From a virus (taxonomy: Duplodnaviria > Heunggongvirae > Uroviricota > Caudoviricetes), in the IMG/VR virus record IMGVR_UViG_2526164632_000031: a DNA stretch of 18,314 bases, one strand, 5' to 3'. The notes beneath the pieces were generated by a model. That model was not told the DNA's origin, made no database searches, and saw only the letters and a list, made by a program, of their open reading frames with translations. The position numbers and the translations under genes are program-made. Below, piece after piece: positions 1 to 17,895 of this stretch (position 1 is the first letter of the stretch; each line of letters starts with the position of its first letter).

Positions 1-953
<953 letters not shown>

Positions 954-2532: not shown

Positions 2533-2688
2533 TTACTTCTCAGATTCGTAGTCCACGAAGACAGCAACCTCCGTCTGGCCGGTTCGGATTCGTACCTCGC
2601 AGAGGTCTTTCCTCGTTACCAGTGCCGTCACTATGACGGTTAAACAGATGACGATAAGGGCGATTAACATCGCCTTTTGCTGCTTCAT
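2533..2688 (-). CDS. hokD: Hok/Gef family type I toxin (HokD/RelF-like)
   Basis: Translation MKQQKAMLIALIVICLTVIVTALVTRKDLCEVRIRTGQTEVAVF... is a canonical Hok membrane peptide; the ORF track extends it in frame to 2745, but the conserved Hok start is the ATG at 2688. Confidence 0.85.
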   Translation of the reverse strand: MKQQKAMLIALIVICLTVIVTALVTRKDLCEVRIRTGQTEVAVFVDYESEK

Positions 2689-2900
2689 AGCCTGCTTCTC
2701 CTTGCCTTTCGGCACGTAAGAGGCTAACCTACATTTGTGAGACATAGATTGGGCCTCAGATTAATGTTAAGCGTCTTGTAGGACGCGTAATGTTAACTGG
2801 GGCTTTTCTCTATCTGCCTTTTGGTGTTCATGCCTGAGGCAGATAGCCTCAAGCACCCGCAGCAATTCTAACTATCCAATAGATCAATGCCAACTTCTTT
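2689..2900 (-). promoter_or_regulatory. Structured hok mRNA leader region (possible mok/sok-type control region)
   Basis: Several stable inverted repeats (2771-2787 GCGTC..GACGC; 2810-2846 CTATCTGCC..GGCAGATAG; 2834-2850) immediately 5' of hok on the minus strand. Confidence 0.35.
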
Positions 2901-3245
2901 TCCTGCAACATCTCTCATCATAAGTGACCAAAATTCATCCAATCAGCACAAAAGAAACATTTAAAGCGTGAATGCTACCGAACGTTCATTTCAATTACAT
3001 CGTTTTGATTTTTAACAGTTTTTACCTCAACAAATCAAATGGCATTAGCATTCATCATGGAAGAAAGACTGATAAAAATGATCATTTTCAATGACTTATG
3101 ATCACACCGGGTATTGCCAAGTCATTCCTTTTACGCCAGGATACCCACAAGTGAGTAGTCGAGGAGAGTTTGCCAATTTTTGCGATATAAATTTCAATGT
3201 CCGAAGAACCATTAATTGTTAATTGATTCTGTATAAGGTATTAAC

Positions 3246-4343
3246 ATGACAATTTCATATATTCCTATTCTGAAAGCGAAACGTTCTGAGTTATCAGCTT
3301 TATCGCAGCTATCCATTGAAAAGAAATCAAAAATTTTGCCATTACTCGAAATTGAACCAGTGCCAATTGACCCTGATTCAGGTATTGCCTTAAAGAGTTA
3401 TAACGAGACTCTTATAGAGTTCGGAAAGAAAGTCTCAAAATCTTGCTCAGATATGCAAGGTGTTTATATTGATGGATTATTAATTGAAGAGCATTTTATT
3501 TCTCCTGAAGATCATTACCCTATAATAAATGCGGTTAATCAAGTTAGAGATATGGGGATAAGAGTTATTCCTGTCAGTTCACCAACTCGCCCATCTAACT
3601 ATAAAGGAGCGATTGATGAATTAATGCAGAATGAAATATGCTTGAGATTAACCACGTTAGATCTGGTTAACCCACAATTAATAACGCATTACATTAATCA
3701 TCTGGGAATTCCTTTATCAAATATTGATATAATTATTGACTTAAGAGATGAGTTAACCGAGGATAAACTTAATTCCGGCGAACTATATACTTTGGCAATG
3801 GGATTGATAAACAATCTGGCGCACCTCAATGAATACAGAAAAGTGATTCTTTCTGGGGGTTCATTTCCTACAGATCTCAGTGATATTTCTGTTGGTCTAT
3901 ATTCTCAACCTCGAATCGAGTGGATTTTATGGCAGAGTTTAATGAATAGAAAAGAACTTGCCAGAAATGTGATTTATAGTGATTATGGAGTACAGCACCC
4001 CGACTTTAATAGGCTTTCGACGCGATTCCCTAGCGTATCTGCCAGCGTCAGATACTCTGGAGATAATGACTTTTGGGTATTTCGAGGAAGAGTAGCTAAT
4101 CGCTTTGGTTATGAACAATATGGTAAACATAGTGAGGATATTCTTGCTCATCGAGAATATTCAGGGCCTACATTCTGTGCGGGAGATAGAGACATAGAAT
4201 ATTATGCAAACGAGTATCAAGCCTACAAAGCCAATCCCTCTGGTAACTATAAATTTGGTAGCCCAGAGGTATGGCGTAGGATTGGGCAAAACCATCACAT
4301 AACTAAGGTTGTTGAGCAACTCGCCACTCTTTACGGGCTTTAA
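3246..4343 (+). CDS. Uncharacterized cargo protein with Beta-protein / sce7725-like N-terminus
   Basis: 365-aa ORF, AAGG RBS 8 nt upstream, AT-rich codon usage; N-terminus MTISYIPILKAKRSELSAL resembles the Y-[IV]-P-[IV]-L-K-x-K-x-x-E start I associate with the Beta_protein (PF14350) / sce7725 family. Confidence 0.8.
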   Translation: MTISYIPILKAKRSELSALSQLSIEKKSKILPLLEIEPVPIDPDSGIALKSYNETLIEFGKKVSKSCSDMQGVYIDGLLIEEHFISPEDHYPIINAVNQVRDMGIRVIPVSSPTRPSNYKGAIDELMQNEICLRLTTLDLVNPQLITHYINHLGIPLSNIDIIIDLRDELTEDKLNSGELYTLAMGLINNLAHLNEYRKVILSGGSFPTDLSDISVGLYSQPRIEWILWQSLMNRKELARNVIYSDYGVQHPDFNRLSTRFPSVSASVRYSGDNDFWVFRGRVANRFGYEQYGKHSEDILAHREYSGPTFCAGDRDIEYYANEYQAYKANPSGNYKFGSPEVWRRIGQNHHITKVVEQLATLYGL

Positions 4344-4881
4344 GTTTAACTCGAACAGCTTCACGAAGCTCGCCAACATCCATACTATTGGCGAGTTTTG
4401 ACCATAAGACGCGTTTAGGTTTATTTTTCAAATTCTGTAGCTCCCCTACATCACTTAATAGGGAAAGCAATTCATCTTTCCAAAGAAGCATTGTTAAGGA
4501 AAGTTTGTCCACTTGTGGATTCAACTTGCTAGTTCGAATTGTTTTTAAATGGATACCTTGCCGTGCACCTTGCGTAACTTGCTTTATCCCCCACCATGAT
4601 GGAACTATGCTTAAAGCATCATAAAGATGGCAATCAGAGACAACCAACGTTACTTTATCCATCACTGATGAGTAATGTTGCACCTGCGCTGGTAATCTGA
4701 GCAAGTTATCACTTTTGCTCTTCAACTCATAACCATGTATAAGCCCATTGATCACTGCTATATCAGCTCTGCTAGCCCCCAGATTCATCGTAAACTCATC
4801 AATGATTAGGGTGTCAGGATCTTTATGATGATCTCTCAAAATCTTGGCATGCACAGCCTTTCTTACATCAATGTCTCTCAT
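4303..4881 (-). CDS. Uncharacterized cargo protein with PD-(D/E)xK nuclease-like motif (sce7726-like)
   Basis: 192-aa ORF; LIIDEF ... ASRADIAVING ... HGYELKSKSD gives an acidic residue then D-x(n)-E-x-K spacing typical of restriction-endonuclease-fold nucleases. Confidence 0.8.
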   Translation of the reverse strand: MRDIDVRKAVHAKILRDHHKDPDTLIIDEFTMNLGASRADIAVINGLIHGYELKSKSDNLLRLPAQVQHYSSVMDKVTLVVSDCHLYDALSIVPSWWGIKQVTQGARQGIHLKTIRTSKLNPQVDKLSLTMLLWKDELLSLLSDVGELQNLKNKPKRVLWSKLANSMDVGELREAVRVKLKARKEWRVAQQP

Positions 4882-5152
4882 ACCATAGTTGCGCTTTCAT
4901 CGACTCTCTCAAGCCATGATTCTATATCATGGTTCGCATGAATGCCATTTGATATGACCAGTGGTTAAACATTGCACAGAAAAGTGGATGTGTATTTTAA
5001 CAAAAGCAATGACGGCTAACCATGTTGGTATGTCGATAAAATGTTTCAACGTAAGCATTATCTGTTCCGCCCTTTCGGGCGGCCTCCTGATGTTCTGAGG
5101 GTGCAGAAATCCCTCCGGTTAAGGATTAAATTTTTAACAGTGCTAAATTTAA

Positions 5153-5509
5153 TTATTCAGTTCTGGATTTTGTCACCCTGCGTATCCGTGCTTTCGCATT
5201 ACGCTCAATCTGAATTAGCTTTTCTATATTTTTTCGCCTTTCCTGTTCCTCCTGGCGCAATAGTTTTACATCATCTGCCAGTCTGGTTTCTCTTTTCGCC
5301 ACAGAGAGCATCCAGTCAAATGGCTCCACAACTGCACCGCAGATTTTACAGCGGACCTGACGCTCTTTTTCGTCAACCCGGACAGAAGCGTGATGGCAGT
5401 ATGGTCTTTCCGATGGCTCATAAAGAAAATTAACCTGATTACGTGGGTCATCCTCTTTTACCGGAAATAAAACAATATTACTTAACTCATCTTCTGGTTT
5501 TATTTCCAT
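5153..5509 (-). CDS. Hypothetical phage protein with putative zinc-ribbon (C-x-H-H ... C-K-I-C-G) and basic C-terminus
   Basis: ORF track starts at 5566, but the in-frame ATG at 5509 has a strong AAGGAGAGGAG RBS; 118 aa from that start. Confidence 0.6.
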   Translation of the reverse strand: MEIKPEDELSNIVLFPVKEDDPRNQVNFLYEPSERPYCHHASVRVDEKERQVRCKICGAVVEPFDWMLSVAKRETRLADDVKLLRQEEQERRKNIEKLIQIERNAKARIRRVTKSRTE

Positions 5510-5566
5510 GCTCCTCTCCTTTGATGCGAATGCCAGCGGCAATTGAAGCCTGATAGCTAATTTCAC

Positions 5567-10267: not shown

Positions 10268-10662
10268 CGGAATACCTTATTACTGGTTGTGTGAGAACTC
10301 CAGTATACCACCGAGCCTGAAGTGGTAAAAAGACAGGCGCACAACACGAAGGCGCATTTCCGGTATTCATAAAGAGTCGGTCTTGTCTGTTAAATTTAAA
10401 TGGTGGGAGTGCGCCTCCGGTTGTAAATAACGACATTGCTATGTGTAGTCTTTGGCGGCATCAGTTCTACTCCGTGGCTGCCCTGTCGCCCCTTTTTAAA
10501 GTGAATTTTGTGATGCGGTGAATGCGGCTAAGCGCACGCGGCACAGTTAAAAGCATCAGTGTTATGGGTGGATTATCCGGCGTTAATTGTTAACTGGTTA
10601 ACGTCACCTGGAGGCACCAGGCACCGCATCGACAAAATTCATTTGTAAAAATGGAGATAATT

Positions 10663-15775: not shown

Positions 15776-15970
15776 ATGCGGTATGAAAAAGTCAAACCAT
15801 GTCCGTTTTGTGGTTGTCCATCAGTAACGGTGAAAGCCATTTCAGGATATTACCGCGCAAAGTGTAACGGATGCGAATCCCGAACCGGCTATAGTGGAAG
15901 TGAAAAAGAAGCACTCGAAAGATGGAATAAACGAACTACTGGAAATAATAATGGAGGTGTTCATGTATAA
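15776..15970 (+). CDS. ralR: Lar-family restriction alleviation protein (RalR-like)
   Basis: 64 aa from ATG 15776; MRYEKVKPCPFCGCPSVTVKAISGYYRAKCNGCESRTGY zinc-finger typical of Lar/RalR. Confidence 0.8.
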   Translation: MRYEKVKPCPFCGCPSVTVKAISGYYRAKCNGCESRTGYSGSEKEALERWNKRTTGNNNGGVHV

Positions 15971-16151
15971 AATTACTGCCACTATTGAAAAGGAAGGTGG
16001 CACTCCTACTAACTGGACAAGATATTCAAAATCTAAATTAACGAAATCAGAATGCGAAAAAATGCTCTCAGGGAAAAAAGAAGCAGGCGTTTCCAGAGAG
16101 CAGAAAGTAAAGCTGATAAATTTTAATTGCGAGAAACTTCTGTCCTCGTGA
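15963..16151 (+). CDS. YdaC-like small protein
   Basis: 62 aa from ATG 15963 (GGAGGTG RBS); position between ralR and xis as in Rac. Confidence 0.5.
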   Translation: MYKITATIEKEGGTPTNWTRYSKSKLTKSECEKMLSGKKEAGVSREQKVKLINFNCEKLLSS

Positions 16152-16251: not shown

Positions 16252-16539
16252 ATGGCAATGAATCTTGTGACACTCAAAACGTGGGGAAAACTCAGATATC
16301 CGGATAACCCACCATCAATATCAACGCTGAGACGATGGGCAAGGAATGGAAACATTTATCCTGCACCTGAACTACACGGGAGGAGTTACAGGGTGGTTCC
16401 GGAGGCTTTCTATATCAACCCAAATAAGGTTGATACCGATATAACACACCATCAGCCTAATGGGCGACAAGGGAGAGACAGTCCGTTACTGGAGAAGTTA
16501 AAACATGCAGCGGAAAAAATACGATCCCAATTTGCCTAA
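16252..16539 (+). CDS. xis: Excisionase (lambda Xis-like)
   Basis: 95 aa; 3' end overlaps the int start as in lambda; LKTWGKLRYPDNPPSISTLRRWARNGNIYPAPELHGRSYRV resembles the Xis winged-helix. Confidence 0.75.
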   Translation: MAMNLVTLKTWGKLRYPDNPPSISTLRRWARNGNIYPAPELHGRSYRVVPEAFYINPNKVDTDITHHQPNGRQGRDSPLLEKLKHAAEKIRSQFA

Positions 16540-17581
16540 AAACTTAACATATCGAAGGAGGGACAAAGCATATTACTGGCGCAACCCTCTGACGAAAGAA
16601 GAATTTACACTAGGTAAAATTTCAAGAAGAGATGCAGTAGCGCAGGCAATTGAAGCAAATCATTATATATACAAAAACTACTCTCCTGCTGCCTTAATTG
16701 AAAAGCTTAAAGGGTTCGACTCATTTACTATGGCAGACTGGATTGAACGTTACAAAACGATTCTTATAAGGAGAAAAGTGTCCAGAAATACTTATAAAAT
16801 TCGGGTAAATCAACTGGAGACAATAAAAGAAAAATTGGGAGAGATTTTACTGACAGAAATAACCACTCGCCATATTGCCGAGTTTCTTGATTTGTGGATT
16901 GAAGGAGGGAAAAACACAATGGCAGGATCAATGCGTTCTGTGTTGTCTGATATGTTTCGTGAGGCCATTGTTGAAGGACGTATATCTCAAAATCCAGTAA
17001 CACCAACAAGAGCACCGAAAATAGTAGTTACAAGAGAACGACTGAAACTAAAGACATACAACTGCATCAGGGAGGCAGCAGATCAACTTCCGGCATGGTT
17101 CCCATTAGCTATGGATTTAGCCCTTGTAACAGGACAACGTCGCGAAGACATAACGAATATGCGGTTTAGTGATATTTATGATGATCGTCTCCACATCAGG
17201 CAAATTAAGACAGGAATGATGATTGCTATCCCCCTGTCACTCAGCCTTCCTGTCGCTGGTCTACGGCTTGGTACAGTAGTTGAACAGTGCCGCCTGGTAA
17301 GCCGGGGAGATTATCTAATCAGTGCCGGGATTAGAAAAAACAGCCCTGACGGCAGCATTCACCCGGATGGCCTGACAAAAAAATTTGTCGCAGCCAGAAA
17401 ATTAACAGGTATCCAGTTCAGTGAAAACCCACCAACTTTTCACGAGATCAGAAGTCTGGCTGGACGATTGTACAAAGAAACATGTGGAGAAGAATTTGCT
17501 CAGCGTCTACTTGGCCACACATCGGAGAAGACAACAAAAATGTACCTTGATGAGAGAGAAAAAACGTACGTACTGCTCTGA
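16505..17581 (+). CDS. int: Lambda-family tyrosine integrase
   Basis: 358 aa; C-terminal catalytic region [11 protein letters not shown] ... [16 protein letters not shown] with the conserved His and catalytic Tyr. Confidence 0.95.
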
Positions 17582-17895
17582 TTTTAACGTAAATGGATTG
17601 TTAAATGTATTTTGGTTGTGATATAACCAAAAAAGACCGGAATACAGAAATTCGAGTAAATTTCGGGGAATTTCGGGGAGACGTTTACAACTGATTGATT
17701 TTAAATACAATTAAAAAAGACCGAATACGATTCCTGTATTCGGTCCAGGGAAATGGCTCTTGGGAGAGAGCCGTGCGCTAAAAGTTGGCATTAATGCAGG
17801 CTTAGTTGCCTTGCCCTTTAAGAATAGATGACGACGCCAGGTTTTCCAGTTTGCGTGCAAAATGGTCAATAAAAAGCGTGGTGGTCATCAGCTGA
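17582..17895. other. Prophage/host junction region containing the int-proximal attachment site (core not identified)
   Basis: Non-coding; direct repeats AAAAAAGACCG(G)AATAC at 17629-17645 and 17713-17728; tandem AATTTCGGGG x2 at 17659-17678. Confidence 0.4.
17713..17745 (-). terminator. Hairpin plus T-tract (minus-strand orientation)
   Basis: GACCGAATAC-GATTCCT-GTATTCGGTC (10-bp stem) preceded on the plus strand by AAAAAA, i.e. followed by TTTTTT on the minus strand. Confidence 0.4.

Follow-up and report, generated by a model that had tools for sequence, protein, structure and literature searches.

An anti-phage function is tentatively proposed for a pair of overlapping genes found in an 18,314-nucleotide (nt) stretch of viral DNA, the IMG/VR record IMGVR_UViG_2526164632_000031 of the Caudoviricetes, referred to below in its entirety as the window. 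The first gene, beta (positions 3246..4343, plus strand), encodes a Beta-family protein; the second, on the minus strand (4303..4881), encodes a nuclease-like protein of the sce7726 family. Both genes converge and share the end of their coding sequences, an arrangement that recurs in more than ten phyla. The pair may constitute a two-gene defence module, with sce7726 as its presumed nuclease effector and Beta as a presumed enzyme-like factor for sensing or licensing, a reading that is held here with somewhat less than even confidence.

The beta gene starts with an ATG and encodes 365 amino acids (aa; N-terminus MTISYIPILKAKRSELSALSQL), as indicated in a preliminary description of this DNA made from its sequence alone, and its product is known in RefSeq as WP_000156212.1, 'beta family protein'. 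The same description had recognized a likeness to the Beta-protein family from the N-terminus. This likeness extends in fact to the whole protein. Indeed, the Pfam profile PF14350 (Beta_protein, gathering cutoff 27 bits) matches residues 5-356 over profile positions 1-341 of 342, with a score of 177.3 bits and an E-value of 7.7e-52. Beta is thus confirmed as a full-length member of PF14350, far beyond chance and not by its N-terminus alone. PF14350 is the sole Pfam match of this open reading frame (ORF), which also matches PHROG 9159, of unknown function (E 4.8e-144), and reaches the cutoff of no NCBIfam family. The proposed sce7725 label had to be abandoned: the curated model NF033831 (sce7725, cutoff 60 bits) gives only 12.2 bits (E 0.1), restricted to the 35 N-terminal residues 5-39. 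Ten diverse relatives behave in the same way, all of them matching PF14350 and missing NF033831. The family is very large: at 50% identity, its public sequences fall into 4380 clusters (E <= 1e-3), and its best 150 representatives are stand-alone proteins of 340-421 aa. By its length, its single domain and its conserved residues, the window protein fits the stand-alone form of PF14350 (about 350-380 aa). Beta itself is therefore already known as an annotated member of a named family. A literature search returned no mechanistic study of Beta, and sce7725, sce7726 and PF14350 were mentioned in genome announcements only.

The AlphaFold model of Beta (predicted local distance difference test score, pLDDT, of 92.6) is a TIM barrel with the (beta/alpha)8 fold; the protein has no close solved relative and no sequence match to any solved protein. 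Conservation across 226 diverse members is highest at Y5, P7, E15, P32, D76, P109, R134, D165, F207-P208, R223, D246-Y247, Y270, G338, W343 and H350-H351. The N-terminal Y-x-P-x-L-K motif, D76, R134, D165, D246, W343 and H351 are all present in Beta and are 88-100% conserved among these members. The active sites of TIM barrels are located on the face of the barrel formed by the C-terminal ends of the strands. In the model, strands 73-76, 160-165 and 243-246 end, on their C-terminal side, with D76, D165 and D246, and strand 131-135 contains R134. Because these near-invariant aspartates are found at strand ends, the conservation pattern looks enzymatic, and the modelled trio suggests that Beta is an enzyme. 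The fold and the acidic residues at the C-terminal strand ends are features that Beta would share with TIM-barrel enzymes acting on nucleic acids or phosphoesters, such as DpdA/TGT and the GDPD/PLD-type phosphodiesterases. The earlier remark that no catalytic motif could be recognized is accordingly correct for textbook motifs, but it overlooked D76, R134, D165, D246 and H351, which are arranged in the model like an active site.

The facing gene encodes a protein of 192 aa (RefSeq WP_001204666.1, 'sce7726 family protein') which matches NF033832 (sce7726, cutoff 70 bits) over its full length with 191.1 bits and an E-value of 1.7e-56, so that the nuclease-like neighbour announced in the preliminary description was correctly identified. 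All its close homologues carry the precomputed assignment PF26915 Phage_P4_cII. Its predicted structure contains the core alpha-beta-beta-beta-alpha-beta fold of the PD-(D/E)xK nucleases, with intact E...D...(D/E)xK catalytic residues. The GenBank record of phage Rac-SA53 labels the same pair 'beta' and 'CII phage-like protein'. In the upstream region of sce7726 (4882..5066, minus strand), a promoter-like site, ATGGCA-18-TAGAAT, is located at 4948..4919; taken by itself, the promoter scan does not exceed chance. Six enterobacterial contexts that cannot otherwise be aligned nevertheless share an extended -10-like element, TGnTATA, 40-90 nt 5' of the sce7726 start, and the window copy of this element coincides with the promoter-like site.

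The coding overlap between both genes covers 41 nt (4303..4343) and contains the two stop codons. A terminator or hairpin was sought in these 41 nt and none was found, the RNA structure z-scores of -1.0 and -0.3 being not significant. The overlap co-encodes the C-terminal helix of Beta (..NHH[IL]T..Q[IL]ANL) and the C-terminal ..WR.. tail of sce7726. Among six enterobacterial relatives, third-codon identity amounts to 0.42-0.46 outside the overlap and increases inside it, to 0.70 for the Beta frame and 0.89 for that of sce7726, a difference that fits dual coding even if it is based on only 13 sites.

The generality of this arrangement was examined in a survey in which ORFs were searched around Beta homologues in 78 loci from one-genome-per-species contigs, collected through a Beta alignment. 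With the E. coli reference locus and the window, these amount to 80 sources. The preliminary description had recommended that co-occurrence with PD-(D/E)xK neighbours be checked. Of the 80 sources, 78 carry, at the 3' end of Beta, an overlapping sce7726-like ORF in convergent orientation; in the two others, the contig stops at or within the Beta gene. The overlap, whose length is set by the stop codons alone and is not affected by the choice of start codon, ranges from 23 to 140 nt with a mode of 50 nt. In 77 of the 78 cases this length equals 2 mod 3, the sole exception being a locus with a 37-nt overlap (L008). The antisense codon register is therefore fixed, codon position 1 facing position 1 and position 2 facing position 3. 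The hosts belong to the Enterobacterales, Aeromonas, Bacillota, Bacteroidota, Patescibacteria, Nitrospirota, Acidobacteriota, Planctomycetota, Chloroflexota, Myxococcota and Gemmatimonadota, for a total of more than ten phyla, with Beta identities down to about 25%.

An independent scan of IMG/VR viral contigs leads to the same picture. Of 59 loci, 54 contain the convergent partner and every one of these 54 overlaps has a length of 2 mod 3. The five unpaired loci comprise three with too little contig downstream, one with a truncated Beta and one odd case. The truncated Beta stops at about 208 aa and is followed by 4 kb devoid of sce7726 (L124); a same-strand sce7726 match at a distance of 1258 nt was also observed in one viral locus (among L091-L149). 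In the Gordonia phage Powerball, the overlap between gp33 (Beta) and gp32 spans 89 nt; gp32, annotated as an 'exonuclease', is sce7726-like (hhalign 100%, 40% identity), and the two genes lie beside an integrase and a HicAB pair. In E. coli, a second variant displays a 59-nt overlap and is located between the lysis genes and the terminase gene Nu1. In the papers searched, this phylum-spanning 3' overlap in fixed register with a nuclease gene appears to be undescribed.

Upstream of this pair, the loci are variable. In about 42 of the 78, homologues of PD-Lambda-2_A and PD-Lambda-2_B lie directly 5' of Beta, which is then followed by the convergent and overlapping cll-like gene; the PADLOC models confirm A and B in such loci (4e-37 and 9e-143, respectively). 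These PD-lambda-2-like loci with a fourth, convergent cII/sce7726 gene fall in the range L016-L077 of the survey (for example L025, 4468-7645). In some 9-12 other loci, an Xre/IrrE-peptidase and a PIN-like protein are found 5' of Beta instead, again with the convergent sce7726. This architecture was seen in L039, L048, L053, L054, L072, L074, L076 and L078, and the PIN-like protein, of about 205 aa, has no Pfam or PADLOC match. Finally, 28 of the 78 paired sources, including the window, have neither PD-lambda-2 A/B nor the PIN-like gene upstream, several of them with other, unclassified upstream ORFs, so that the 28 need not all be bare pairs. Clear two-gene versions occupy moron sites, that is in the second E. 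coli prophage type and in the Gordonia temperate phage. A third conserved gene was looked for in window-type loci and was not found. Beta and the convergent sce7726 thus form a conserved core carrying varied upstream modules.

The pairing is not universal. The PD-lambda-2-type operon of E. coli AREA_C483 includes Beta and no sce7726-like ORF in any frame. This operon (L090, 2398-6947) consists of HigB, ImmA/IrrE and a 377-aa Beta, with a 549-aa DUF6119 gene that converges on it from 264 nt downstream and might be a replacement partner for sce7726. The same locus led to the rejection of the idea, drawn from cloning coordinates, that the PD-lambda-2 clone of Vassallo had cut off a convergent sce7726 gene. 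On plasmids, the matches are HigB and IrrE pairs without Beta. An E. coli PD-lambda-2B homologue was looked for in an index of 5.8 billion proteins, where the matches listed are environmental sequences only. As a separate observation, Xre/IrrE peptidases of the PD-lambda-2B type form more than 7000 clusters at E <= 1e-20 and are about 65% identical among Patescibacteria, anammox Planctomycetota and Gammaproteobacteria (P0317-P0436, homologues of L037 586-1821). Such an unusually high conservation across phyla suggests a recent and wide horizontal spread.

Two experimentally validated systems include homologues of Beta. In satellite P4, the gop-beta-cII genes, described as non-essential, protect against lambda and P1, and Gop is cited there as toxic without beta (Rousset 2022, PMC9122126). 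The phage gene orf184 triggers cell death through gop-beta-cII (Silas et al., bioRxiv 10.1101/2023.04.06.535777). The window pair has distant homologues in P4 beta and cII (hhalign 96.9% and 98.6%), which belong to the P4 layout gop(+), beta(+), cII(-). In both cases, a Beta-family gene and a convergent sce7726/cII-family gene are carried by a mobile element in a variable hotspot. P4 beta keeps Y5, P7, E15, D76, R134, D165, D246, W343 and H351, and P4 cII keeps the E..D..ExK residues. P4 cII, unlike the window partner, has 264 aa with an extra C-terminal extension. In P4, 27 nt separate the two stop codons and hold a strong hairpin and U-run annotated as the cII terminator, whereas the window genes overlap. 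A mutation of this P4 terminator reportedly impairs beta expression. A gop gene precedes P4 beta and none precedes the window beta: the PADLOC gop model, which does match P4 gop, has no match among ten window ORFs, a scan from which ORFs of 25-43 aa were excluded. With the P4-type models of PADLOC, the window partner reaches 97.7 bits (2.4e-28) against 'cll', the convergent arrangement being that of P4, and Beta only 17.8 bits against the P4-specific 'beta', at the N-terminus only.

The second system is PD-lambda-2, composed of a HigB-like A, an Xre helix-turn-helix/IrrE-peptidase B and a Beta-like C, and classed as toxin-antitoxin-like (Vassallo 2022, PMC9519451). Component C is dispensable for neutralising the toxin; Beta is required for the system (PMC9519451). 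Window Beta matches PDLC03983 (PD-Lambda-2_C) over its full length with 139.8 bits and an E-value of 2.8e-41, a score similar to that of bona fide members (5.2e-41). No PADLOC match to PD-Lambda-2_A or _B was found among the neighbouring ORFs of the window. The E. coli PD-lambda-2-type operon combines A, B and C without sce7726, whereas the window combines Beta and sce7726 without A and B. As to the sce7725/sce7726 pairs (NF033831/NF033832), known here for sce7725 from its model alone, the window partner is a full-length sce7726 and a Y-x-P-x-L-K-x-K motif is common to Beta and sce7725, but Beta scores below the sce7725 model as mentioned above. A stand-alone two-gene unit distinct from both gop-beta-cII and PD-lambda-2 appears to be undescribed in the papers searched.

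The pair resides in a low-GC accessory cassette, or moron, of 2.2 kb (2871..5066), inserted in a Rac-like lambdoid E. coli prophage, with hokD/sok on one side and the replication-side genes on the other. Such a prophage in E. coli O55:H7 DEC5E shares 99.8% identity with the window from position 1090 onwards. In phage vB_EcoS-640R1, the flanks are 92-93% identical and the segment 2871-5066 is replaced by 1.1 kb of unrelated cargo. The GC content of the cassette is 0.378 versus 0.508 for the flank, and, of 5426 complete E. coli genomes, 93 contain the whole cassette and 4182 the flanks. The replacement, the composition and this distribution establish the accessory status of the moron. Its left end and the untranslated region 5' of beta (2871..3245, plus strand; boundary taken from the vB_EcoS-640R1 comparison) presumably contain the beta promoter. 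Apart from AGGA, which resembles a ribosome-binding site, no element is conserved across relatives 5' of beta. Between hok/sok and beta, the plus strand contains only ORFs of 25-43 aa, with no gop-like ORF and no same-strand gene upstream.

On this basis, the cassette would represent a self-contained module of two genes directed against phages, able to move horizontally and present as a moron in a Rac-like prophage. This defence reading draws on the homology to validated systems, the strict pairing, the mobile cassette, the intact nuclease signature and the residue constellation of Beta. Beta, predicted to be an enzyme-like TIM barrel whose pocket is rich in Asp (D76, D165 and D246, plus R134 and H351), would be the phage-sensing or licensing component, and the sce7726/cII-family PD-(D/E)xK protein the nuclease effector, which would cut DNA once licensed. 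The phage-facing role is attributed to Beta because it is common to systems with varied partners (gop; HigB and Xre-peptidase; sce7726) and because it diverges faster. Indeed, the median pairwise identity is 29.3% for Beta and 39.5% for sce7726, sce7726 being the more conserved in 91.5% of 2850 pairs; both divergences are correlated (Spearman 0.68). Since the two genes are transcribed convergently and share their last 41 nt without a terminator, their mRNAs should be complementary at the 3' ends, and any clean deletion or move of either gene would damage the other. The overlap could in this way couple the expression and the inheritance of beta and sce7726.

The explanation that deserves most attention besides a defence module is that of an addiction system, in which sce7726 would be a constitutively toxic nuclease and Beta its antitoxin, in the manner of P4 beta towards Gop; the pair would stabilise the prophage and might abort infection upon Beta depletion. 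The toxicity of P4 Gop without beta (PMC9122126), the toxin-antitoxin-like classification of PD-lambda-2 (PMC9519451), the overlapping 3' ends that bind beta and sce7726 together and the proximity of another toxin-antitoxin locus, hokD/sok, all speak for it. It is weakened by strain PEC209 (L084, 2047-4458), where an IS1 splits beta and sce7726 is intact, with the same protein accession: Beta is therefore not an indispensable antidote to the nuclease. A disrupted allele may even persist or be common, as a cluster of partial beta sequences of 215 aa (P0035) contains 123 members, close in size to the 214-aa C-terminal fragment of PEC209, the identity of the two being unconfirmed. Moreover, component C of PD-lambda-2 is not required to neutralise the toxin (PMC9519451), and a conserved enzyme-like barrel of 365 aa would be unusual as a simple binding antitoxin. 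An addiction system is consequently regarded as unlikely.

A pair akin to restriction-modification may also be envisaged, where Beta would be a TIM-barrel enzyme modifying DNA like the DpdA/TGT-type base-exchange enzymes and sce7726 would be the cognate restriction nuclease sparing modified self DNA. The matches to DpdA/TGT are however no better than those to dozens of unrelated TIM barrels, and Beta has, as noted, no solved counterpart detectable by sequence. PEC209 tolerates the loss of the 'modifier' next to an intact 'restriction' gene, and Beta occurs and defends without sce7726 in E. coli operons of the PD-lambda-2 type, all of which makes this proposal rather improbable. Little credit is likewise given to a function in the phage life cycle, for example as an accessory to regulation or recombination in lambdoid and P4-like elements, even if cII owes its name to a plaque phenotype of P4, the cassette is situated between the replication region and the nin region of the prophage, its genes occur on 59 IMG/VR viral contigs and some homologue records are annotated 'regulatory protein'. 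The P4 genes are indeed described as non-essential (PMC9122126), related phages carry unrelated cargo in place of the cassette, and two relatives have demonstrated anti-phage phenotypes. Most relatives are furthermore associated with toxin-antitoxin-like HigB/Xre-peptidase genes in non-phage contexts (candidate phyla radiation (CPR) bacteria, Acidobacteriota, Planctomycetota and others). PEC209, the Beta-only PD-lambda-2 operons and the replaceability of the cassette are less consistent with any of these three explanations than with a defence module.

A bolder version of the defence reading can also be formulated, which seems doubtful at this stage. The pair would be an ancient and autonomous immune module. 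Beta would represent a new class of enzymes built on a TIM barrel, which sense phages or generate a signal, and three defence architectures or more (stand-alone, P4 gop-beta-cII and PD-lambda-2-like) would have reused it, each with other effectors. The overlap, whose register is maintained from Enterobacteria to CPR bacteria and actinophages, would then be a functional antisense and co-inheritance device and not a frozen accident.

The surroundings of the cassette include several known elements. On its left, Pfam and Rfam identify the type I toxin-antitoxin locus hokD/mok with sok (hok ORF 2533-2745; sok 2683-2858, minus strand). The known Rac-like prophage loci encoding the small RNA DicF (10440-10491, plus strand) and the antitoxin RNA RalA, opposite ralR (15969-16147, minus strand), are also present, and SraC/RyeA with SdsR/RyeB (17709-17852, both strands) lies just beyond the integrase gene (16505-17581). 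The ORF adjoining the cassette (5153-5566, minus strand; 118 aa in its shorter RefSeq version) belongs to PHROG 1621 and displays a weak zinc-ribbon match. At the other end, the ORF 105-887 (plus strand) encodes an IS21 IstB helper ATPase (Pfam 7.7e-112). The window differs from DEC5E 5' of position 1090, which is consistent with an IS21 insertion. The IstB ORF also matches the PADLOC model PDLC02630 'DrmD' over its full length (4.9e-96, 260 positions). This model apparently describes IstB, and false DISARM calls could follow.

The Beta family, a very large one, is represented in two validated anti-phage systems (PD-lambda-2 and P4 gop-beta-cII). The survey suggests that defence-finding tools, as currently defined (gop+beta+cII; PD-lambda-2 A+B+C), overlook the stand-alone pair as well as the fourth, convergent gene that most PD-lambda-2-like operons possess. 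This cII/sce7726 gene, seen in most such operons outside E. coli, is not part of the three-component PD-lambda-2 as described by Vassallo et al. (PMC9519451). The window contains the simplest version, Beta and one nuclease in a 2.2-kb cassette, and provides a convenient test bed for determining the substrate of the Asp-rich pocket, the possible role of the nuclease as effector and the reason why a same-register overlap is conserved across more than ten phyla. Its main value is to offer the simplest handle on the biochemistry of a widespread, defence-associated TIM-barrel family.
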